NCBI GenBank assembly: GCA_964562925.1
Contig: CAZLVF010000002.1
Span: 29,181 to 86,260 of the forward strand
Origin: an uncultured Candidatus Bathyarchaeia archaeon
GTDB taxonomy: Archaea; Thermoproteota; Bathyarchaeia; 40CM-2-53-6; CAVXDP01
DNA: 57,080 nucleotides
Direction: 5' to 3'
The notes under the pieces are model-generated. The model was given only the letters and a program-made list of their open reading frames with translations, searched no databases and was not told the DNA's origin. Both the position numbers and the translations under genes were made by a program. This document shows, piece by piece, positions 5,544 through 29,324 of the stretch; position 1 is the first letter of the stretch, and each line of letters begins with the position of its first letter.

Positions 5544-5927
5544 CTAGTAGAATATTTGAAAGAACTGGTCCAAATAGAGTATGAACAGGAACAGGCTGGA
5601 ACCAACTATCAGCGGGATTAGACTTGACAGTACTTCACTTTTGATTCCCCATCTAGCGAGTATGAACTTCAGGTTGATGGTGAAGTGCATTGAAAATAGC
5701 ATCATAATAGGAATGTCTAGTTTCGTGTGCAGCACAAGTCCATAATATCTATGTATGAATCCCCTAGTCACCATATATCCGCTTATCATGAAGATTAGAA
5801 ATAATACGAGAAGTGCCCAGACTATTATTCTGTCGATCTTTTTCAATAATGTGTCCGAATTCAAACTACAACTCCAGAGAAACTCAGTTATTACCATTGC
5901 TACATGCTGTGCCGATCTTCGGTCCAT
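5544..5927 (-). CDS. Small polytopic membrane protein, possibly an MsrQ/YedZ-like partner of the adjacent Mo-oxidoreductase
   Basis: 127 aa with about 4 predicted TM helices and conserved His residues. It overlaps the 3' end of the MsrP-like gene on the same strand. Confidence 0.3.
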   Translation of the reverse strand: MDRRSAQHVAMVITEFLWSCSLNSDTLLKKIDRIIVWALLVLFLIFMISGYMVTRGFIHRYYGLVLHTKLDIPIMMLFSMHFTINLKFILARWGIKSEVLSSLIPLIVGSSLFLFILYLDQFFQIFY

Positions 5928-6607
5928 GGATCAGCAGTATTGCTGTAACCTCTTAGCTCCCAGTATCCAAGTTCCTGTTGCTCGGTGAACTTCACCTTTC
6001 TAACCCATTTGGCGCTCTTGTAAGCATATCTCTTGGGCACAACAAGTCTAAGTGGTCCTCCAAAGCAAGGCTCCAATATAGCTCCATCCAGTTCATATGC
6101 AAATATGACATCATCATCTAGGAGCTCCCTAAGAGGAAGAGATGTCGTGTAGCCGCCGTCGCATATTATTGTGGCGTACTCTGCGCTACCTCTTGGTTGA
6201 GCCATATGACCTACTGTTTTGAACTGTACTCCGCTCCACCTGTTGTCGAGTTTACTCCATCCCGTGACGCAGTGGAAGTCAGACATCGACTCGACTTTGG
6301 TCAAGGCCAGAAACTCATGCCAAGTTAGTTTGAACGGTCTATCGACAACGCCGAAAACTTCAAAGGTCCAAGACTGAGGATCGAATCTGGGAATATCGCC
6401 GACGTGCAAAACTCGGAGCTGTTTCACCTCATATTGCCCGGGTGGTATTCTTCCCAGCGCCGTCGTTGACTCTTCCACAGTTAACATCTCTTTCTTGAAC
6501 AGTTCCCCTCTGAATTTCAGGTAGGCTGAGGCCAAGCCTCCGATTGAAACCGCAATTCCCAACAAGTATCTTAGATATCTTCTTCTATTACTTTGCTTTC
6601 TTGTCAT
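5900..6607 (-). CDS. Molybdopterin-dependent oxidoreductase of the sulfite-oxidase fold (MsrP/YedY-like)
   Basis: 235 aa with an N-terminal TM/signal segment. The motifs FHCVTGWS, GGPLRLVVP and KSAKWV are typical of YedY/MsrP Moco domains. Confidence 0.75.
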   Translation of the reverse strand: MTRKQSNRRRYLRYLLGIAVSIGGLASAYLKFRGELFKKEMLTVEESTTALGRIPPGQYEVKQLRVLHVGDIPRFDPQSWTFEVFGVVDRPFKLTWHEFLALTKVESMSDFHCVTGWSKLDNRWSGVQFKTVGHMAQPRGSAEYATIICDGGYTTSLPLRELLDDDVIFAYELDGAILEPCFGGPLRLVVPKRYAYKSAKWVRKVKFTEQQELGYWELRGYSNTADPWTEDRHSM

Positions 6608-6890
6608 GGACAGACATCGTTAGCGAAGGGTTTCTCACTACTCTGCCCAGAAACCTGCTCATAACTATGCCGCACCATGTCAGAAGAGATTCTCGAACAT
6701 CGTCATATGGCTCACGTGGACGAATCGAGTTGTGAATGTGCGGATCCCTAACAAGGTTGTTGTGTTAGTTAATTTGATACTTGCAATCTTGAATCCGGAT
6801 AGCTAGAAGCGGTCAGAACATTACGGTAGCCGCTCATAGGATTGCGATGAGAACCTTGGGAGGCTGTGAGCTCTTATCAAGATGATATGG

Positions 6891-7003
6891 AGCCCCGGGC
6901 GGGGTTTGAACCCGCGACCTTCGGCTATTCGTTCAACTGACCTGTACCAAGCCGACGCCCATGACCAGGCTAGGCTGTCCCGCTTCTTAGAGAGTACCGG
7001 GGC
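6891..7003 (-). tRNA. tRNA-Thr(GGU) carrying two introns, one after position ~9 in the D-arm region and one at the canonical 37/38 position
   Basis: The reverse complement reads GCCCCGG-TA[CTCTCTAAGAAGCGGGACA]GCCTAGCCTGGTCATGGGC-G-TCGGC-TTGGTA[CAGGTCAGTTGAACGAAT]A-GCCGA-AGGTC-GCGGGTTCAAACCCCGC-CCGGGGC-T-CCA. The acceptor stem is a perfect 7 bp, the discriminator is U73 and the anticodon is GGU. The mature length is 76 nt after removing 19 + 18 nt. A CCA is encoded at 6888-6890. Confidence 0.7.
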
Positions 7004-7142
7004 CAACCGGAGCCGTTTGTTGGAGCTGGCTTCTGATTATAATAAGTTTCGGTGAAGCTCTTCAAACTGATAATCTTGGCATGACTATGTGGGAAGAGGA
7101 CGCAGTCTAATGTCTAGTCTCCAAGAATCTGTTTGATTATGT

Positions 7143-7152: not shown

Positions 7153-7206
7153 AGAATTCTTGTCCGGATCTGATGGGAAGTATTAGGAAAGGCTTAAAAA
7201 TACAGT

Positions 7207-8022
7207 ATGAGACATAACTATAATCGTTTAAAAGAAATCAGGGAGGAAAAAAGAAAATTGGTAAGAAAGTGTTCTACCTGCGGTGCAAACAACAGGGATG
7301 ATGCCAGCTTCTGCTCAGCGTGCGGTACATCACTCGTCGCTCCGCCTTCCGTCAAGCCGGTGCCCACCGTGAGAGTGGTTTCTCCGGTCACTCCCGTCGG
7401 CGCGCCTGTCAGGGTTCCGCCGCCAGGCATGTGCTTCTACCATCCGAACCTTCCAGCCATCTACGTTTGCAATAGATGCGGACGACCGATCTGCAGAGAC
7501 GATTCGAAAGCCTACCAGGATCTGGTTATGTGTCCGCAATGCTACCAGAGCGTGGTACCGATCGTAGCAGCCCCTGCATATTACCCAACAGCACCTGTCT
7601 ACCCGGCTCCACCCCCGATGCCCGAAGTCGGATTCGCTCCCCCTCCTGTAGGAGTTCCACCTGTAGCGGTATTCCCACCTGCAAGATCAACTTGGGGTTT
7701 CACCATATCTCTAATCGGAGGAATCCTAATCATAATCAACGCAGCCGCTCTGCTCTCCGCTAGCTTCTACGCCTTGTGGGCAGCCATCTTTCCATGGATA
7801 ACCTATTTTGGCCCGTTCCCGCCTTGGGTGCTCGTGGCGATCGGACTGATCCTCGGCATCATAGCCACGATAGGGAGCATTCTGATGATCCTGGGCTACG
7901 GAACGATTGGAGCCGTAGTAGTGTTCCCAGCGGCTGTGATCAGCCTAATCCTCGGTGGAGGCTTCATAGCCGGGTTCGTCCTAGGAGTCGTTGGCGGAAT
8001 CCTAGGAATGCTTGGAAGGTAA
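7207..8022 (+). CDS. Membrane-anchored zinc-finger protein and candidate RING/B-box-like E3 of the operon: N-terminal zinc ribbon plus a C-x2-H-x8-C-x2-C-x4-C-x12-C-x2-C module, a Pro-rich linker and about 4 C-terminal TM helices
   Basis: 271 aa. The zinc ribbon is CSTCGANNRDDASFCSACG and the second module is CFYHPNLPAIYVCNRCGRPICRDDSKAYQDLVMCPQC. The C-terminal 110 aa are Gly/Ile/Leu-rich hydrophobic helices. It is the first gene of the Ub/E2/E1 operon. Confidence 0.55.
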   Translation: MRHNYNRLKEIREEKRKLVRKCSTCGANNRDDASFCSACGTSLVAPPSVKPVPTVRVVSPVTPVGAPVRVPPPGMCFYHPNLPAIYVCNRCGRPICRDDSKAYQDLVMCPQCYQSVVPIVAAPAYYPTAPVYPAPPPMPEVGFAPPPVGVPPVAVFPPARSTWGFTISLIGGILIIINAAALLSASFYALWAAIFPWITYFGPFPPWVLVAIGLILGIIATIGSILMILGYGTIGAVVVFPAAVISLILGGGFIAGFVLGVVGGILGMLGR

Positions 8023-8079: not shown

Positions 8080-9633
8080 GTGTTCTACGTCAGTATGTCT
8101 AAAGACGCTATGTCTAAAGTTATCGATCACGCAAAAAGCACGCCCGAGAAAGAGGTAATAGGAGTTTTGACGGGGAGGATGGATAATCAGACCTTGATCG
8201 TTGAAGACGCTGTGAGTGGCGAGACGGTAAGGAGCGAGAAAAATGTGGTAATGCCAGGAGAAACTCTGGCAAAGATCGCGGACGATATCATAAATAGGAG
8301 GACTAAGGGAAACATAATCGGCTGGTATCATTCACATCCGGGTTATGGAGTATTCATGTCCGAAGTGGACAAGGAGACACAGTCCAAGTTGCAGCAGTTC
8401 TCTCCATATATTGTTGCACTTGTATCCGATCCGTCAACTGGAGAGTTCAAGTTTTTTACTCACGATGAAAAGTCCAAGTCTACCGAGACCCTAACCCACG
8501 ACCGAGTTCACTTCTACGGCCCTGGAGAAAAATCTGTGCCAGAAAGTTTCAGGAAGACAAAGACTGCGCCAAGGTTACCAGCGACACCTCCACCTTCAAT
8601 AGCTCCGCCTCAAAGGCCACCACTAACGAGAAGACAGGTCTACGCCTTGGTCACAGCGATGGTTCTTATTGCAGCAATAGTGACAGGTGCCCTACTCATG
8701 GTGACTATTTCTGGCCCTATCTCGCCGCTAAGAATGGATCACGGGCCTGTCACAAGCGGGACCATCGGCAATGATATCAAACTGATAGCTAATGTGAGCG
8801 GACCGGTTATGGAGGTTCTAGTCTACTACAAGCTTTCGAAAGACGCTACGTGGAAAAGTGATAATATGCTCCTGATCTCCGGCATGCGTGACACATATTC
8901 CTATACGATTCGTGGAAATGATGTAACCGGGAATCTAGACTACTATATAACAGCATCCGACAGCGCGGGCAATGAGATTTCAATTCCCACCAGTACGATC
9001 GTAATCCGGGACTTTGACGTTGACATATCTGAAAGCCAACTAACGATATATGTTGGACAGACGAAGACTACCACCGTGACAGTGAAATCAATAAACGACT
9101 TCGGTTTGCCTGTCTCTCTTAGCGCTCCTAACAGACCGCCCGGAGTCGCAAGCGTATCATTCACCCCCCCGCAGGTTGCGCCTCCGAAAAGCGGCGAAGC
9201 CACATCCACGATGAAGGTGACGCTAGTCCCGTCAGCCGAGACAGGCGAATATGAGATGGAGGTTCAAGCGAAGTATGGTCAGGTAACAAGAACTATATCC
9301 GTAACCATTCTTGTATCAGGCTTCGAGATATCAGTGTCGCCATTGTCTGTAACGATCCAGAAAGGAAAGACGGCCACATACACGGTTACGTTGGACATAA
9401 AGAAGGGTTTCACAGATACAGTCTCACTCGATGTTACAGGGCTTCCATCAAAAGGAATTGAACAAACAAGGATTCTCGTTATTAACAAGAAGATAGCTGC
9501 GCAGGGAACTACGACGCTTACAATGGAGATAGTAACAAGATCCGACGTACCCGCGGGGACTTATAACCTCAAGATAGTTGCATCCGGCGGAGAGTTGACA
9601 CAGGAGGAAAGAGTTACTTTAATTATTCAATAG
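8080..9633 (+). CDS. JAMM/MPN+ metalloisopeptidase (Rpn11-like deubiquitinase/Ub-precursor protease) fused to a TM helix and a ~300-aa extracellular beta-sandwich (Ig/CARDB-like) region
   Basis: 517 aa. The N-terminus carries EVIGVLTGR...GWYHSHPGYGVFMSEVD, which contains the JAMM motif E-x(n)-HxH-x7-S-xxD. A Pro-rich linker and a positive-inside TM helix (VYALVTAMVLIAAIVTGALLMVTI) follow. Repeated Thr/Val-rich beta-strand modules make up the rest (TYTVTLDI, TTTLTMEIV, YNLKIVASG). Confidence 0.8.
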   Translation: MFYVSMSKDAMSKVIDHAKSTPEKEVIGVLTGRMDNQTLIVEDAVSGETVRSEKNVVMPGETLAKIADDIINRRTKGNIIGWYHSHPGYGVFMSEVDKETQSKLQQFSPYIVALVSDPSTGEFKFFTHDEKSKSTETLTHDRVHFYGPGEKSVPESFRKTKTAPRLPATPPPSIAPPQRPPLTRRQVYALVTAMVLIAAIVTGALLMVTISGPISPLRMDHGPVTSGTIGNDIKLIANVSGPVMEVLVYYKLSKDATWKSDNMLLISGMRDTYSYTIRGNDVTGNLDYYITASDSAGNEISIPTSTIVIRDFDVDISESQLTIYVGQTKTTTVTVKSINDFGLPVSLSAPNRPPGVASVSFTPPQVAPPKSGEATSTMKVTLVPSAETGEYEMEVQAKYGQVTRTISVTILVSGFEISVSPLSVTIQKGKTATYTVTLDIKKGFTDTVSLDVTGLPSKGIEQTRILVINKKIAAQGTTTLTMEIVTRSDVPAGTYNLKIVASGGELTQEERVTLIIQ

Positions 9634-9668
9634 ATAGTTAACTAGGCCAATGGAGGTTGTCGAAAGAG

Positions 9669-9920
9669 ATGAAACTCTTTGTACAGGCGCCCGTAGGTCC
9701 ACAGACAGGGTTGGCTGAGATAGAGGTCATACCAGATCATACGATCGGCGAAGTGAAACAGCAGGTCTGCACTTCATTCGGCGTTGATCCAACGACGGTA
9801 TCCCTGATGTATGGTGGAGTCGTCCTCGACGAGAGTATGACAATTTCAAGAGCAGGCATACCGGAGAACGCGCAGCTTGCACTCATGCCATACAATATCA
9901 TCGGCGGTCAGATGGTGTGA
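9669..9920 (+). CDS. Ubiquitin-like beta-grasp modifier precursor (GG followed by a 3-residue C-terminal extension)
   Basis: 83 aa from the ATG at 9669; the ORF track starts at a TTG at 9657. The sequence MKLFVQAPVGPQTGLAEIEVIPDHTIGEVKQQV...NIIGGQMV aligns with ubiquitin (MQIFVKTLTGKTITLEV...LRLRGG). GGAGG lies 12 nt upstream. Confidence 0.75.
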   Translation: MKLFVQAPVGPQTGLAEIEVIPDHTIGEVKQQVCTSFGVDPTTVSLMYGGVVLDESMTISRAGIPENAQLALMPYNIIGGQMV

Positions 9921-10507
9921 ATCTACCGCTCCTCTATGAAGAAAGAAGATTTGTAAACCACCAGTTCCCGATGGTTACCCCCCTCGCCGACCCTCCAACC
10001 CTATATGAGGGACTCCTCCGCTGCGAGAAAGGCCGAGTGAAAGACCTAGCTGAGAAGAAGATCTGGCCGTTCACTGAATATGTGAACTGGCACCGTTTCA
10101 GGCTTGAACTTTTGAATGAGTATCCGCTGAAACCGCCGGCCGTTACTTGGCTCACCGAGGTCTCTCATCCGAACATCGTTCCAAATATTCCTGGAGCTGT
10201 ATGCGTCTCGGTTCTGGGAGAGGCTTGGCGCCCGGATCTGAAGCTTATCTCGGTCATAAACTCACTCTACTATCTTCTATCGGACCCAAACCCCGACAAC
10301 GTCTTCGACCATCCGAAGTGTATAGAAGCTGCAAAGGTCTGTAGAAGTCACGGCTTCCCAGATAGAGGGATGCGAAAGAAGACTCCGGAGCCCGAGGATA
10401 TAATGAGGTTCAACATTATCCCGATCCCTGGTTCAGCTGCTGCCTCACCAGATACTCTCCTCACTTTTAGGATACCCGGTCGAATGCGCCAAGAGGCAAC
10501 TCGATGA
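9917..10507 (+). CDS. Ubiquitin-conjugating enzyme E2 (UBC fold)
   Basis: 196 aa. The HPN motif and catalytic Cys are present (VSHPNIVPNIPGAVCVSVLGEAWRPDLKLISVINSLYYLLSDPNPDN). The GTG start overlaps the Ub stop by 4 nt. Confidence 0.75.
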   Translation: MNLPLLYEERRFVNHQFPMVTPLADPPTLYEGLLRCEKGRVKDLAEKKIWPFTEYVNWHRFRLELLNEYPLKPPAVTWLTEVSHPNIVPNIPGAVCVSVLGEAWRPDLKLISVINSLYYLLSDPNPDNVFDHPKCIEAAKVCRSHGFPDRGMRKKTPEPEDIMRFNIIPIPGSAAASPDTLLTFRIPGRMRQEATR

Positions 10508-11757
10508 AGGTTACGGCGGAGATCCCGCAGTATAAAGAAGTTGAAGTCAAAGCCTCCAAGAATATGAAGGTGCGGAACCTAAAGAGAGAGATATGTAAAA
10601 AGCTCGGGATCAATGAACAGCTTACGTCTCTGCTTCTACAGGGCAGGCCACTTCGAGAGAACAGCACTATCAAAGAGATCGGTCTTCAATCTAGAAAGCT
10701 AACTGTAGACTATATGTGGGCTAGGCAGCTGCTCCTTTGGGGTAGCAATGGCCAGACAGCGATCGAGAACGCGCAGGTCTTTCTTGCGGGCGCAGGCGCT
10801 ATAGGAAACGAGGTTGCAAAGAACCTTGCCATGCTAGGTGTTCAAAGACTTGTGATCGTTGATTATGATCTTGTTGAAACCTCAAACCTCAGCCGAACCG
10901 TTTTTTATGAGAAGAGCGATGTTGGGAAAGCGAAGGCGGAGGTTCTGTCAAGAAAGCTGAAGAGGAACTATCCGTACGTTCATCCAACTTTCCACCGCTG
11001 TAGAGTCGAGGGCGTCCCAGCTCAAGTGTATTTGAACTCTGATGTTATTGTATCAGGTCTTGACAACGTTCCATCAAGGATGCATCTCGCCTCAATCTCC
11101 CGGAGATATCAGATCCCCATGGTAGACGCTGGAGCAATAGGCTACGAGGCCAGAGTCCAAGCGTATGTTCCACCTGAGGATCCCTGTCCGATATGTCCTC
11201 TCCCTCCGGGAAACTATGGGCAGATGGCAGGTCTCAGAAACCCCTGTACCGCACCCCTAGAAGAGATGAGGATCCCTTCTCTGCCTACATCGATGTCTCT
11301 GGTATCGTCGATACAGACTCAGGAGGTAGTGAAGATAATATTGGGATACAAGACCTTCCTAAAGGAGAAGAGGTGGCCATCAGAAATAGGAGAGCCTCTA
11401 AAGGGGGCGCTTCTAGTTGATCTAAGGTTCAACAGATACTCTAGGGTTGAACTGAATAGGAATCCAAGATGTATGGTATGTGGAAAAGACGGCGTTGCAA
11501 AGAATATTGTAAGCCGATATGAAGTTTCACTTTCAAAGACTGGAAACTCGACGTCTAGACTCCAGAAAAGAGTTAGCGAACTCTTAGATGCCAAACCGAC
11601 AGAGATGCTAATGTTCAAGGAGGACAAAAAGAAACTCGTACCAGTTGAGGTTGGGAAAGAATTAACTGAGTATGATCTAGAGAAAGGAAAATTTGTTCAC
11701 ATAGTGATGAAGACGGCTGACGACAAGTATTCTGAGGCTGTTGTCAAACTCAAGTGA
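10504..11757 (+). CDS. Ubiquitin-activating enzyme E1-like (ThiF/MoeB/UBA fold) with an N-terminal ubiquitin-like domain and a C-terminal ubiquitin-fold domain
   Basis: 417 aa. The Rossmann GxGxxG motif is FLAGAGAIGNEVAKNLAMLGV. Zn-binding pairs are CPICP and CMVCG. The N-terminal 70 aa and C-terminal 90 aa have a beta-grasp-like pattern. The ATGA start overlaps the E2 stop. Confidence 0.8.
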   Translation: MKVTAEIPQYKEVEVKASKNMKVRNLKREICKKLGINEQLTSLLLQGRPLRENSTIKEIGLQSRKLTVDYMWARQLLLWGSNGQTAIENAQVFLAGAGAIGNEVAKNLAMLGVQRLVIVDYDLVETSNLSRTVFYEKSDVGKAKAEVLSRKLKRNYPYVHPTFHRCRVEGVPAQVYLNSDVIVSGLDNVPSRMHLASISRRYQIPMVDAGAIGYEARVQAYVPPEDPCPICPLPPGNYGQMAGLRNPCTAPLEEMRIPSLPTSMSLVSSIQTQEVVKIILGYKTFLKEKRWPSEIGEPLKGALLVDLRFNRYSRVELNRNPRCMVCGKDGVAKNIVSRYEVSLSKTGNSTSRLQKRVSELLDAKPTEMLMFKEDKKKLVPVEVGKELTEYDLEKGKFVHIVMKTADDKYSEAVVKLK

Positions 11758-11825: not shown

Positions 11826-13937
11826 CTATTCAAGCCTTCCCGCTTTTTTCAACCTCTCAGTGGATGCCTTAACCTCTTCAGGCGTAATCCCTAGTTCGCT
11901 TGCGGCCTTTTTCAGAGATATCACGCCAGAATGTTCAAGTATGTAGGAGTAGACTCTTTCGTCCAAATCCGATGCCTCTGGCGATCTTCTTGAGCCGCAT
12001 CTCTGACAGAAGTTCTCAGATTCAGAGATCGGCGCACCGCAGCTTGCGCATCGGCCAACGTGGTCTATCACAACTTCCCCGACTACCGGTTTGGTTCGTG
12101 GCGGGCGGGAAACTCGGCGTCTAAGTCTTGTGCTAAACCATGCAAAAGGATCAAGCCCGAGCTTAAACTTCATAAGACCAATGATGCTCAGAAGAGATAT
12201 TCCAATAATAGTTGCTACGATGCCACCTAGGAAAAGTGGACTGAGAACCGTCACGGTGGCATTTGCACGGTCTTCTTCGTAACGTAGATCGCCAGAGTAG
12301 ACAACCTCAACTTTCACCGTGTCAGCAGAAATTACTTCGAATGAGATTGACGCTATCCCTTCGTTATCTGTCACGAGTTCTTGATTTATCCTTCTGCTGC
12401 CGGCTGCTACTGTGAAGTCCAATGTTGCGCTTTCAATCGGGTTCCCGGACAAGTCTTTAAGCATGGCTTTGACCACAAGGTTGTCTCCTTGAATGACAAA
12501 GCCTTGCGCGAAGAGCGTCAATGTTGTGCGAATGCCTTCGATAGGAAGTGTTCCAGACCATTCGGCACCTTCAAAATTTCTTTCTCCTACATACGTGATC
12601 CTCAGTTGAACTGATCCCTTTCTTCCCGGCACGTATTGCATAGAGGCAAAACCGTCCTCGTTTGTCAAGGAGCTTCCGAGCTTCTCATTGTCAGCATAGA
12701 ACTCGACCACTTGTCCCGGCACGGGGTTGCCCATCTCATCAGATAGTTGAGCCGTGATGTTCAGACTTTGCCCAACAACGGTTGTTTCTGGGATACTTGA
12801 TGAAAGCTTAGTCGGGATAGGGAGGATTCTGATTCTCGTCGTTGTGGTTGCGGAATCATAGGTAGCAGACCCTTCGTAAAGGGCTTTCACTTGATATTCG
12901 CCCACATTCAAGGTTCCAGAATATGCCAGCTTTGCTTGGCCCGACGAGTCAGTCAAGCCTGTTCCGATCTCTGTTTGCTCAGATCCGGCTAGGATGTAAA
13001 ACCTTACAGGTTGGTCTGGTAGAGGGTCTCCGTTCGCATCAACCAGCGTCACAGCCGCCTCGATAGGATATCTGTACTTTACTGTTTCTGGAACGTCGAG
13101 TTTGAGGTTGGCCCCAAGCTTGGTGACAGTAAGGGTTATAGAAGCTTTCTCTACGTGAGAGGTTCCCCTGAAATCTGAATATGATATTTCAAACGTGAGT
13201 ACATGCGGCCCCATAGAAGCAGTTGAAGGAACAGACACAGAGAAATCTGTTCGTGCGGTCTCGCTTGGGGATACATCGCCAATAGTCTGCGTCCACGGGT
13301 TAACAATCAATCCGGAAGAGTCTACTAGTGAGACAGAAGCTGAATACATTCTGTCGTTTCCACCATTCTGGAATGAGATAGTGAGCGTCGAAGGTTTCCT
13401 TGCGCCGAGTTGAACGGTTGAGATCGACTGATACCAGCCTGCAACGTACAATTTTACGACGAGAACCCTGAACTCCCTAACATCCTCTAGAACCACTGTC
13501 GTCTGATTCTTCCAGTACAGCTCGGCGCGCATGAGATACTCGTCCGGCCCCCTCAAGTTCGCAACGACGATCTCGTGCCAGGTCGAACGTCCAGGCCTAC
13601 ACTCCCACGGCGAAGAGAACTCGTCGACAACGATAACTCCGTCGCCGTACACCTTGAAGAAGAAGAGTGACGCGCCCGACGGATCTCTCCGCTCTAGGTT
13701 CAACACCGTGAAATTGAGGTTTTCCGTATCTCCGTCATAGATCTTCGCGACATAAATCGTCTCTAGAATTCTAGCTCCCAATGCTCCCTGGGCTTCGATA
13801 TGAAGCGGGTTGGTAAAAAAGAACGGTCCCGCCATGAGAGCTAATAGAAAGCAGAATATGAGGCAGTCACGCCCTATCTTCGTAGACTTTCCCTCTACTC
13901 CACAAGTTAACGTATGACTCACTCTTGAAGTCGGCAT
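11826..13937 (-). CDS. Receptor-like single-pass (type I-like) membrane protein: signal anchor, ~520-aa extracellular Ig-like/CARDB-like repeats, a TM helix and a cytoplasmic zinc ribbon plus winged-helix domain
   Basis: 703 aa. The N-terminal hydrophobic anchor is LIFCFLLALMAGPFFF. The second TM is LFLGGIVATIIGISLLSIIGLMKF, followed by RLRRRVSRPPRTK, CASCGAPISESENFCQRCG and a wHTH-like tail (YSYILEHSGVISLKKAASELGITPEEVKASTERLKKAGRLE). It is convergent with the E1 gene. Confidence 0.6.
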   Translation of the reverse strand: MPTSRVSHTLTCGVEGKSTKIGRDCLIFCFLLALMAGPFFFTNPLHIEAQGALGARILETIYVAKIYDGDTENLNFTVLNLERRDPSGASLFFFKVYGDGVIVVDEFSSPWECRPGRSTWHEIVVANLRGPDEYLMRAELYWKNQTTVVLEDVREFRVLVVKLYVAGWYQSISTVQLGARKPSTLTISFQNGGNDRMYSASVSLVDSSGLIVNPWTQTIGDVSPSETARTDFSVSVPSTASMGPHVLTFEISYSDFRGTSHVEKASITLTVTKLGANLKLDVPETVKYRYPIEAAVTLVDANGDPLPDQPVRFYILAGSEQTEIGTGLTDSSGQAKLAYSGTLNVGEYQVKALYEGSATYDSATTTTRIRILPIPTKLSSSIPETTVVGQSLNITAQLSDEMGNPVPGQVVEFYADNEKLGSSLTNEDGFASMQYVPGRKGSVQLRITYVGERNFEGAEWSGTLPIEGIRTTLTLFAQGFVIQGDNLVVKAMLKDLSGNPIESATLDFTVAAGSRRINQELVTDNEGIASISFEVISADTVKVEVVYSGDLRYEEDRANATVTVLSPLFLGGIVATIIGISLLSIIGLMKFKLGLDPFAWFSTRLRRRVSRPPRTKPVVGEVVIDHVGRCASCGAPISESENFCQRCGSRRSPEASDLDERVYSYILEHSGVISLKKAASELGITPEEVKASTERLKKAGRLE

Positions 13938-22035: not shown

Positions 22036-22364
22036 GGTAGCGGTGGCGACATCCCCAGATGATTGACATCCCTCTCGGCCGCGGTGTCCCGACCGCTTTC
22101 TCCTACCTGTGATCCCGCCAGCGCCTTGGCGTTCACCTTACGACCGCTCTCTTCCGAGCCTCGTCGGGTTCAGTGACAGGGAAGTAACTTTCTCCCTTCG
22201 AAGAAAGTTCTTCTTCCGCTGGCCCGACGGGGCAGGAATTCACTGTCGGCAGTCGAGGCCTTCGGCCGTTTGGAAATGCCGCTCATCCAGGTTAGCGGAT
22301 CCCCGCATGTAGCCGATTTCGGGTTTAGGGAACGGCTGGCTCCCCGACCCCTCGCCACCGCCAA
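22036..22364 (-). ncRNA. ffs: Signal recognition particle RNA (7S/SRP RNA, about 330 nt)
   Basis: The 5' GGCGGTGGCGA pairs with the 3' TCGCCACCGC(U), closing helix 5. A conserved helix-8 (domain IV) signature is present: GAGGCUCGGAAGAGAGCGGUCGUAAGGUGAAC, compared with bacterial CAGGUCCGGAAGGAAGCAGCCAAGG. There is no ORF on either strand. The region is GC-rich and strongly self-complementary. Confidence 0.7.
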
Positions 22365-28070: not shown

Positions 28071-29324
28071 GTGTCGTCATCGGATTCCGTCGTGAGGTTC
28101 AAACTTAAACGTACCCTCGACCTCCTCTCATCGAAAGAAGGGCGGGGCACCGAGCTTATTTCACTCTATGTCCCCCCGAACAAGAGAATCCATGAGGTTA
28201 TGAACAACCTCCGCCAAGAGTACGGCACCGCGTCCAACATAAAATCCCGCTCAACTCGAAAGAACGTTCAGGACTCTATCGAAAGGGTAAGCCAGAGGCT
28301 CAAACTCTTCAAAGCTCCCCCTCCCAATGGTTTGGTAATCTTCTGCGGTGCGATTCCTCAGAACGGCCCGGGCAGCGAGCGGATGGAGATATATGCCCTT
28401 GAACCTCCAGAACCGATACACGTCTACTTTTACCGTTGCGACAACAGGTTCCACACAGAACCGCTCCTAGAGATTATGAGAGAGAAGGACACATACGGCA
28501 TACTTGTTATCGACTCGAACGACGCGGTTGTGGCAACCCTCCGAGGAAGACGGATGGAGGTTTTGAAAGAGTATCATTCAGGGCTCGGAGGAAAGCATAA
28601 GACAGGAGGCCAATCAGCTAGACGTTTCGAGAGGATCAGGGAACAAGAACTTAACGAATATTTCAAACGTGTCGGAGCTCATGTTGATGAAATCTTCGGC
28701 CAGATACCTGATCTTCGCGGCTTAATCATAGGGGGTCCGGGTCCTACGAAGTACGATTTCGCTGAGGGAGAGTCCCTCAACTACGTTCTGAAAGAGAAGG
28801 TTATTGGAATTGTAGATACCTCATACGTAGGAGCGAACGGTGTCGAAGAAGTCGTTGCGAAGAGCCCCGAAATCCTACGCGGCGTACGCTACAGTGATGA
28901 GAAGAGAGCCGTTCAACGTTTCCTCTATGAGATTGGGCATGAGACCGGACTGGGCGTATACGGAGAAACAGAGGTTAGAAAATACTTGGGCCTTGGAACC
29001 GTGGACACTCTCCTACTTTCTGAGAAGGTAAACGTCATTCACGTTGAAACCAAGTGTACCACTTGCGACTATAAAGAGGACAAGCTGATGGCTGCCCATG
29101 AGCTTATGCAGTACGAACAGAACCTGTCGAACACACGATGCCCAAAATGTTCCAATAATACTTTGATGATTGAAAAGAGAGAAGACCTCTTGGATGAGTT
29201 GGTGGGTCTAGCCGATAAGGCTGGAGCCAGAGTGGAAATGGTCTCGACAGAAACGGAAGAAGGCGTTATGCTCAAAGAGTCATTTGGCGGAATTGCAGCA
29301 GTCCTCAGATATAGGCCGAGCTAG
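28071..29324 (+). CDS. prf1: Peptide chain release factor aRF1 (eRF1 homologue)
   Basis: 417 aa. The NIKS-like motif is NIKSRSTRKNVQ and the GGQ motif is GGQSARRFERIR. The C-terminal domain carries Zn-ribbon cysteines. Confidence 0.9.
   Translation: MSSSDSVVRFKLKRTLDLLSSKEGRGTELISLYVPPNKRIHEVMNNLRQEYGTASNIKSRSTRKNVQDSIERVSQRLKLFKAPPPNGLVIFCGAIPQNGPGSERMEIYALEPPEPIHVYFYRCDNRFHTEPLLEIMREKDTYGILVIDSNDAVVATLRGRRMEVLKEYHSGLGGKHKTGGQSARRFERIREQELNEYFKRVGAHVDEIFGQIPDLRGLIIGGPGPTKYDFAEGESLNYVLKEKVIGIVDTSYVGANGVEEVVAKSPEILRGVRYSDEKRAVQRFLYEIGHETGLGVYGETEVRKYLGLGTVDTLLLSEKVNVIHVETKCTTCDYKEDKLMAAHELMQYEQNLSNTRCPKCSNNTLMIEKREDLLDELVGLADKAGARVEMVSTETEEGVMLKESFGGIAAVLRYRPS

Follow-up and report, generated by a model that had tools for sequence, protein, structure and literature searches.

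Archaeal operons for a eukaryote-like ubiquitin (Ub) system are already known, and they offer the main view of how the cascade of Ub-activating (E1), Ub-conjugating (E2), and Ub-ligating (E3) enzymes originated. In Candidatus Caldiarchaeum subterraneum, the genes are arranged in the order rpn11l (on the opposite strand), ubl, e2l, e1l, and srfp, the RING gene being the last (PMC3082918), and the ubiquitylation of substrates required the RING protein (PMC5654768). Descriptions of such operons have so far placed a small soluble RING finger in the E3 slot. Here, we analyzed a stretch of 57,080 nucleotides (nt) from contig CAZLVF010000002.1 of an uncultured Candidatus Bathyarchaeia archaeon (positions 29,181 to 86,260; the whole stretch is hereafter called the window). 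The gene at 7207–8022 is the first of a co-directional run, followed by genes for a JAB protease, Ub, an E2, and an E1. An earlier interpretation made from the sequence alone (the sequence-only reading) had recognized this gene as the head of the operon, which was borne out, and had put its product forward as a candidate membrane-embedded E3. According to our analysis, the product is very probably a dedicated component of the Bathyarchaeial ubiquitin system. Its role is tentatively proposed to be that of a membrane-anchored, E3-like adaptor with a predicted ligase function.

The Caldiarchaeum-type core is complete and clustered in the window, with a GG-type Ub precursor, a UBC-type E2 carrying HPN and the catalytic Cys, a ThiF-type E1, and a JAMM protease. 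The locus shares with the Caldiarchaeum operon the eukaryote-like Ub precursor, the UBC-type E2, the E1, the JAB/Rpn11 protease, and the order Ub-E2-E1, and in both cases a small zinc-finger protein, of predicted cross-brace type here, is encoded within the operon. In contrast to Caldiarchaeum, the zinc finger is a B-box according to Pfam and not a RING-H2, has a Tyr at the linchpin position, and shares its polypeptide with a four-helix anchor and an N-terminal ribbon; its gene comes first instead of last. The JAB protein differs as well, being membrane-anchored, equipped with Ig-like domains that are expected to be extracellular, and encoded co-directionally. Furthermore, the ubiquitin-like domain of the E1 is N-terminal, whereas a C-terminal domain has been reported for the archaeal Clusters I and II. 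No small-RING (srfp) gene follows the E1 gene in the window: only 68 nt separate the E1 stop (11757) from the convergent gene at 11826, and they contain no open reading frame (ORF). The sequence-only reading had assumed that the known archaeal Ub operons carry a RING E3 at the position of the first gene. This positional argument fails because srfp lies after the E1 gene (PMC3082918); the true equivalent of srfp is a small soluble paralogue composed of a ribbon and a B-box. By its predicted domain content, the window gene encodes the membrane-anchored paralogue of the protein at the srfp position.

The Cys/His module on which this assignment depends reads C76-x2-H79-x8-C88-x2-C91-x4-C96-x12-C109-x2-C112. 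The sequence-only reading had named these seven ligands and noted their B-box-like spacing, and both stand; an eighth ligand position, residue 99 (C96-x2-D99), had been overlooked. We count eight ligands instead of seven because position 99 is Asp in the window protein and Cys in relatives. Of 59 distinct membrane-type sequences, 86% have Asp and 14% have Cys there; Cys occupies the position in 99% of 72 small paralogues, and all core sequences but one have D or C. The full pattern, C-x2-H-x8-C-x2-C-x4-C-x2-[D/C]-x9-C-x2-C, is a predicted eight-ligand B-box-like arrangement with Cys/Cys, not His/His, as the last ligand pair. A scan of the ORFs in all six frames of the window detected the B-box pattern a single time.

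With the Pfam profile zf-B_box (PF00643, gathering cut-off 24.1 bits), the whole protein scored 20.6 bits, below the cut-off, and the isolated segment of 55 amino acids (aa) scored 27.1 bits (E 4.6e-6), above it. Relatives with Cys at position 99 exceeded the cut-off as whole proteins (25.9–35.0 bits). The profile matched 45 of 45 diverse family members at E ≤ 0.1, while ANCHR-like_BBOX matched 32 and the Trim66 B-box 16 of these 45. The full-length AlphaFold model was poor over the B-box (predicted local distance difference test, pLDDT, 53–57), and refolding of residues 18–124 with a more diverse alignment raised the pLDDT over the module to ~96. The refolded model matches cross-brace fingers below significance, and the cross-brace pairing of the ligands is deduced from these fold matches only. 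Foldseek found no match in the PDB at E ≤ 0.001, and PDB sequence searches with two profiles returned the ArnA ribbon and otherwise insignificant matches, for example to TraR, LIM, and TRIM entries. Taken together, the refolded model of residues 18–124 and the zf-B_box score of the isolated segment support the prediction of a single cross-brace domain that is RING-like and belongs to the B-box family; the two independent ribbons that the sequence-only reading had listed as the outcome speaking against it were not obtained. A FYVE or rabphilin-type finger was also considered and rejected, as the phosphoinositide-binding WxxD, R(R/K)HHCR, and RVC motifs are absent; in contrast to such fingers, the module has a C-x2-H first pair with an 8-residue spacer.

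The ligands are strongly conserved. All 11 of the ribbon and the originally named module are invariant in 31 homologues, at a mean column identity of 57%, and these include C22, C25, C36, and C39 of the CxxC-x10-CxxC zinc ribbon, which the sequence-only reading had described correctly. The seven B-box ligands are also invariant in 40 more distant relatives with a mean column identity of 19%. The protein contains 10 Cys in total, all of them in the two metal-ligand motifs, and the only His besides H79 is H3, a residue that precedes the probable true start. This pattern of conservation in the aligned sequences is that of selection and not of chance.

A different reading is suggested by database annotation, namely a generic membrane zinc-ribbon protein of the double zinc ribbon (DZR) type that merely lies adjacent to the Ub genes. 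A search of ~5.8 billion proteins gave 228 homologues; the few that are named in their sources, mostly from metagenome-assembled genomes (MAGs) of Candidatus Bathyarchaeia, are labelled only 'zinc ribbon domain-containing protein', and DZR and Zn_Ribbon_1 are the top whole-protein matches. N-terminal ribbons on membrane proteins are, moreover, very common, and stand-alone copies of the gene exist. The DZR profile (PF12773) does pass its cut-off with 33.1 bits, yet its best stretch is limited to profile positions 1–23 of 45 (aa 22–44). As only half of the profile is covered, the match represents one ribbon, and the second module is the B-box.

The synteny counts argue strongly against this generic reading. 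In a gene-anchored set of 60 loci (one genome per species, nearly all Bathyarchaeia), 40 loci have the membrane-type gene with at least 4 kb of sequence downstream, and 36 of these 40 carry JAB and E2 genes downstream. As for the other four, one locus ends before the E2 gene, one has a 9-kb insertion, and two are stand-alone copies, one of which is apparently frameshifted. As an unbiased converse, 80 loci on metagenome contigs were anchored on the E2. In 37 of them, the E2 gene is preceded by at least 3.6 kb of sequence, and the membrane-type B-box gene was found upstream of it in all but one (36/37). In locus L023, the B-box gene is separated from the JAB gene by an insertion of ~9 kb. The sequence-only reading had stated that its proposal would be refuted if orthologous operons lacked the gene. 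Within the lineage, they do not, since 36/37 and 36/40 loci carry the association. With this synteny, the coverage of a single ribbon by DZR, and a paralogue in the same operon, a protein unrelated to the Ub genes beside it is very improbable.

The paralogue is encoded by a second gene found directly after the E1 gene in Bathyarchaeia (for example, L006, 14437–14871, and L034, 4868–5194, with similar genes in most of L006–L140). Its product is a soluble protein of 87–163 aa with an N-terminal zinc ribbon, a V-K-V/V-R-V linker, and an all-Cys/His B-box. Of 50 E2-anchored loci that extend far enough downstream, 48 carry the gene; the exceptions are L107, whose ORF differs only in being longer (206 aa), and L061, the closest relative of the window. 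The small paralogue is absent from the window, from L001–L004, and from L061. Judging by this distribution, the clade of the window has lost it, and the membrane form is the only B-box protein left.

In both forms, a linker separates the ribbon from the B-box. That of the membrane form is of the KPVPSVRVV type (K-P-V-P-x-V-R-V-V-x-P), and cognate motifs occur in the small paralogues as well as in fusions to kinases and other partners. Among 1.84 billion representatives searched, 3335 relatives of the cytoplasmic domain were retrieved. The PVPSVRV linker and B-box module also occurs on its own in other architectures (P0146, 983 aa; P0128; P0124; P0137), including a juxtamembrane position in a protein with a WD40 beta-propeller, a transmembrane (TM) segment, and a Ser/Thr kinase, and others with an additional C-terminal ribbon. 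These occurrences suggest a portable interaction module.

The window protein is regarded as a candidate membrane-bound Ub ligase or adaptor because its gene heads the operon almost invariably and because the operon contains no RING. A strict RING pattern matched neither in the window nor in loci L001–L060, and a relaxed pattern applied to ~140 loci gave a single match, probably by chance, outside the window. The E2 aligns to Rad6 and UbcH5, and its E3-binding loops are invariant across the E2 family (Y69-P70-L71-x-P73-P74 and W104-x-P106-x-L108). B-boxes are grouped with the RING-like binuclear treble clefs (PMC4506424), and ligase activity dependent on a B-box has been reported for TRIM16 (PMC3357404) and for Bbox1 of MID1 (PMC4162623). 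The module itself departs from the canonical RING spacing, with C-x2-H as the first pair, 8 residues between ligands 2 and 3, and 4 between ligands 4 and 5, and the Prok-RING_1 profile gave only 15.6–16.3 bits on the window protein, below its cut-off of 29.1. The comparison with srfp rests on the published motif spacing (2-11-2-4-2-10-2, similar to 2-8-2-4-2-9-2 here) and residue numbers and not on the srfp sequence. By ligand counting only, Y78 at ligand 1+2 is equivalent to I30 of srfp and Y103 at ligand 6+4 to W58, while P110 lies at ligand 7+1; all three are non-ligand residues conserved in both paralogue families, the membrane-type and the small one, and by this count they would fall where RINGs contact the E2. 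We take I383, W408, and P417 to be their equivalents in c-Cbl.

Several observations weigh against a ligase role. The linchpin position (ligand 8+1, R69 in srfp) is occupied by Y113 and not by Arg or Lys, and this Tyr is present in 97% of the membrane-type and 81% of the small-type sequences. Matches to RING profiles were weak and limited to a part of the family (zf-RING_5 in 12/45 and zf-C3HC4_3 in 8/45 members). Extra membrane-type copies are found away from Ub genes in L022 (1329–2060), whose MAG also contains the operon copy L030, and in L041 (10004–10761), where the copy looks frameshifted. Most eukaryotic B-boxes oligomerize or regulate a neighbouring RING and are not the ligase itself (PMC13591260). 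Finally, the prokaryotic B-boxes have been tied by comparative genomics to the folding, stability, and proteolysis of membrane proteins and not to ubiquitin (Burroughs et al. 2011, as cited in PMC4506424).

The last point is also what would be expected if the window protein served the adjacent membrane JAB peptidase as a partner or regulator and were not a ligase. The B-box, perhaps together with the KPVPSVRVV strand, would in that case bind the tail of the Ub precursor, ubiquitylated clients, or the JAB domain, and would present the peptide or gate the protease. The JAB-TM gene directly follows the B-box gene in nearly all loci, both products are membrane-anchored, and the module lacks the basic linchpin that active RINGs have. 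The arrangement agrees with what has been proposed for B-box, AN1, and LIM fingers that lie beside membrane peptidases in prokaryotes, and prokaryotic B-boxes reportedly partner membrane-associated peptidases. On the other side, the soluble paralogue sits after the E1 gene, at the opposite end of the operon to JAB and at the position of the Caldiarchaeum E3. The module is also fused to a receptor Ser/Thr kinase and found in other non-protease contexts, and a UBC-type E2 with invariant E3-binding loops would be left without an E3-like partner. Although this is the main rival reading, we consider it rather unlikely that the protein is devoted to the protease in place of Ub transfer.

If the protein acts as an E3-like adaptor, as we prefer, the membrane JAB would trim the GG-QMV precursor, and the E1 would activate Ub and hand it to the UBC-type E2. 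The tetraspan bundle and the Pro-rich tether would present the B-box, with the ribbon and the KPVPSVRVV linker ahead of it. The B-box could bind E2~Ub by the surface that a RING would use and so take Ub transfer to the membrane, where membrane or membrane-proximal clients, or the B-box protein itself, might be targeted; the Ub mark would be removed by the JAB enzyme. In most relatives, the small soluble paralogue may have the same role in the cytosol or be paired with the membrane form. In its strongest version, the proposal would make B-box fingers, and not RINGs, the E3 ligases of a widespread Bathyarchaeial system and the product of 7258–8022 a membrane-embedded E3 for membrane proteins, partnered by the UBC-type E2 and the membrane-anchored deubiquitinase, which is possible but which we regard as doubtful.

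Targeting of the B-box protein itself leads to a further alternative, in which it would be a substrate or docking platform (ubiquitylated, for example, at K50 or K101) or a passive anchor that recruits the Ub machinery by its ribbon. Past the probable start, the only cytoplasmic Lys residues are K21, K50, and K101, of which K50 is invariant and K101 nearly so. The N-terminal ribbon, C22-x2-C25-x10-C36-x2-C39, matched Pfam Zn_Ribbon_1 with 36.7 bits, and its spacing (C-x2-C-x3-N-x6-C-x2-C) is of the RanBP2/NZF type; some NZF fingers bind ubiquitin. An assignment as a ubiquitin-binding NZF was rejected, however: despite the fitting spacing, the ribbon lacks the T-F signature and has G-A in its place (G-Y in homologues). 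Foldseek matches of the ribbon to the ArnA and Nup153/Trabid ribbons were non-significant. Auto-ubiquitylation is common in RING-type E3s, and the roles of substrate and ligase are compatible. For a mere substrate, one would expect neither an eight-ligand cross-brace finger that stays invariant down to ~40% identity nor a duplicate in the form of a soluble paralogue within one operon, and we hold a role restricted to substrate, platform, or anchor to be improbable.

The layout of the operon and its products is summarized in Table 1; the genes of the window operon lie close together. The 271-aa ORF runs from ATG 7207 to the stop at 8022 and exists as it had been called, but its start probably needs to be corrected. 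In the alignment of the 31 homologues, nearly all start with M/L-V-K-K-C (MVKKC), aligned to residue 18, which places the homologue start position at TTG 7258 of the window. Because the homologue N-termini align there and a GGGAGG precedes at 7241–7246, TTG 7258 is probably the true start and the product has 254 aa. The Pro-rich linker and the four Gly-rich TM helices of the sequence-only reading were both recovered. Pro accounts for 34% of residues 114–160, and residues 161–271 contain 17% Gly and are uncharged save for a C-terminal Arg. The full-length AlphaFold model contains four long membrane helices and a short interfacial segment at a pLDDT of ~90. The tetraspan bundle is the membrane anchor, and both ends of the protein are cytoplasmic. 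No Pfam or NCBIfam family was found for the membrane domain (aa 161–271), and its structural matches are generic tetraspan bundles.

Table 1. Coordinates of the B-box gene, the domains it encodes, and the neighbouring genes in the window.
Feature	Position	Strand	Remarks
ORF of the sequence-only reading, 271 aa, ATG	7207..8022	+	zinc ribbon, B-box, Pro-rich linker, four-helix membrane domain
Probable coding sequence, TTG start, 254 aa	7258..8022	+	homologue N-termini; start codon inferred
TATA-like A/T-rich stretches	7194-7202 and 7227-7233	+	by-eye reading
N-terminal zinc ribbon, aa 20-44 (C22, C25, C36, C39)	7264..7338	+	Pfam Zn_Ribbon_1, first half of DZR
Linker motif K50-P-V-P-x-V-R-V-V-x-P60	7354..7386	+	invariant columns, 31-homologue alignment
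Predicted B-box-type binuclear cross-brace zinc finger, aa 74-116	7426..7554	+	ligands C76, H79, C88, C91, C96, D99, C109, C112
Flexible Pro/Ala/Val-rich linker, aa 117-160	7555..7686	+	length and sequence variable among homologues
Gly-rich tetraspan four-helix membrane bundle, aa 161-271	7687..8019	+	AlphaFold, composition
JAB/MPN+ metalloprotease, HSHP...S..D intact	8080..9633	+	one TM helix, aa ~186-212
Ubiquitin-like protein, C-terminus ...IIGG-QMV (precursor, 3-residue tail)	9657..9920	+	
UBC-type E2: HPN, catalytic Cys in AVCVS, loop 4 YPLKPP, loop 7 WRPDL	9917..10507	+	4-nt overlap with Ub gene
E1-like ThiF-family enzyme with N-terminal fused ubiquitin-like domain	10504..11757	+	4-nt overlap with E2 gene
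Convergent neighbour: N-terminal hydrophobic segment, Big_1/Ig-like repeats, TM helix, cytoplasmic zinc ribbon, winged helix	11826..13937	-	

The JAB protein (8080–9633) is a putative membrane-anchored deubiquitinase and pro-Ub processing enzyme. It carries ~300 aa of Ig-like, fn3-like, and DUF5980 domains that are expected to be extracellular, which is unusual for an Rpn11-like enzyme. The N-terminal ubiquitin-like domain of the E1 is encoded at 10504–10710 (+) and matches Pfam ubiquitin at aa 9–64. The C-terminal winged helix of the convergent gene product (LDEKVYxYI...RLKKxGRL) is kept beside the operon in 93 loci, while its outer part is variable; this protein could be a membrane-tethered regulator or client of the system. 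A KPV...VV motif common to the B-box protein and the tail of the convergent gene product was discarded, being confined to the clade of the window and not kept across the 93 loci. An assignment to a defence system (Bil, CBASS Cap2/Cap3, or 6A-MBL) was likewise rejected, as PADLOC and NCBIfam gave only generic matches to the E1 adenylation domain and JAB and left the E2, Ub, and the B-box protein unmatched.

Upstream of the operon, an intron-containing tRNA appears to lie at ~6890–7003 (−). It was missed by ARAGORN and by Rfam at the gathering threshold of 29 bits, and a permissive Rfam search scored it with 27.3 bits (E 0.0014). By eye, GCCCCGG and CCGGGGC pair as the acceptor strands, CCA is encoded, and the anticodon looks like GGU (Thr). 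The anticodon loop holds an insert of 18–20 nt, and a further ~20 nt that separate the acceptor from the D arm would represent a second, non-canonical intron. The small ORFs at 6821–7006 (−) and 6882–7055 (+) overlap this tRNA and are spurious. The gene at 5544–6607 (−) encodes a molybdopterin oxidoreductase domain (Oxidored_molyb, E 4.7e-36) and overlaps that of a 127-aa polytopic membrane protein without a Pfam match. The two resemble an MsrP/MsrQ-like pair and are found upstream of the operon in the closest relatives only (L001–L004). An archaeal SRP RNA at 22041–22360 (−) (RF01857, 159.9 bits) fits the archaeal origin of the sequence.

Searches of the open-access literature returned nothing relevant on a Bathyarchaeial ubiquitin operon or on a link between archaeal B-boxes and Ub. 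Relative to the literature searched, the new elements are a B-box instead of a RING as the zinc-finger component, its occurrence in two paralogous forms, one of them membrane-embedded, and the membrane-anchored JAB. The Ub/E2/E1/JAB core is thus shared by a large archaeal class that is widespread in the environment, with no RING in the neighbourhood and two B-box proteins instead. The system is small and could be reconstituted, as it comprises five proteins and the soluble cytoplasmic domain has ~105 aa.

The module shares with the TRIM B-boxes the match to PF00643, the pattern C-x2-H-x7/8-C-x2-C-x4-C-x2-[C/D], the tolerance of Asp as a ligand, and, by prediction, the binuclear cross-brace fold group. 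It differs from them in its last pair, which is C-x2-C after 9 residues here and H-x2-4-H after 3–6 residues in TRIM. Unlike TRIM proteins, the window protein has no RING or coiled coil alongside, is membrane-anchored, and comes from a prokaryotic host. With the prokaryotic peptidase-partner B-boxes, it has in common that the B-box is carried by a membrane protein and that a membrane peptidase, here JAB, is adjacent; those B-boxes are argued to lie outside ubiquitin systems (Burroughs, Iyer and Aravind 2011, as cited in PMC4506424), whereas the family described here is locked in a Ub/E1/E2 operon. Should the B-box serve the JAB protease, the family would form a bridge between the peptidase-partner role in prokaryotes and the ubiquitin role in eukaryotes. 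Should it be a ligase, the published view of prokaryotic B-boxes outside ubiquitin systems would need revision, membrane ubiquitylation would have existed in archaea, and E3 function would not be confined to RINGs among the branches of the cross-brace fold. Among eukaryotic enzymes, the MARCH family, Hrd1, and Doa10 are membrane-embedded RING E3s of the RING-CH or RING-H2 type that work with UBC-type E2s. The likeness to them is one of architecture only, with no sequence relationship shown, and consists in a cytosolic finger, predicted to be of the cross-brace type here, on a small TM bundle. If the B-box fingers were indeed the E3 ligases of the Bathyarchaeial system, the B-box/ubiquitin link of TRIM proteins would predate eukaryotes, and the window protein would be a prokaryotic counterpart of ligases of the MARCH type or of the type acting in endoplasmic-reticulum-associated degradation (ERAD).

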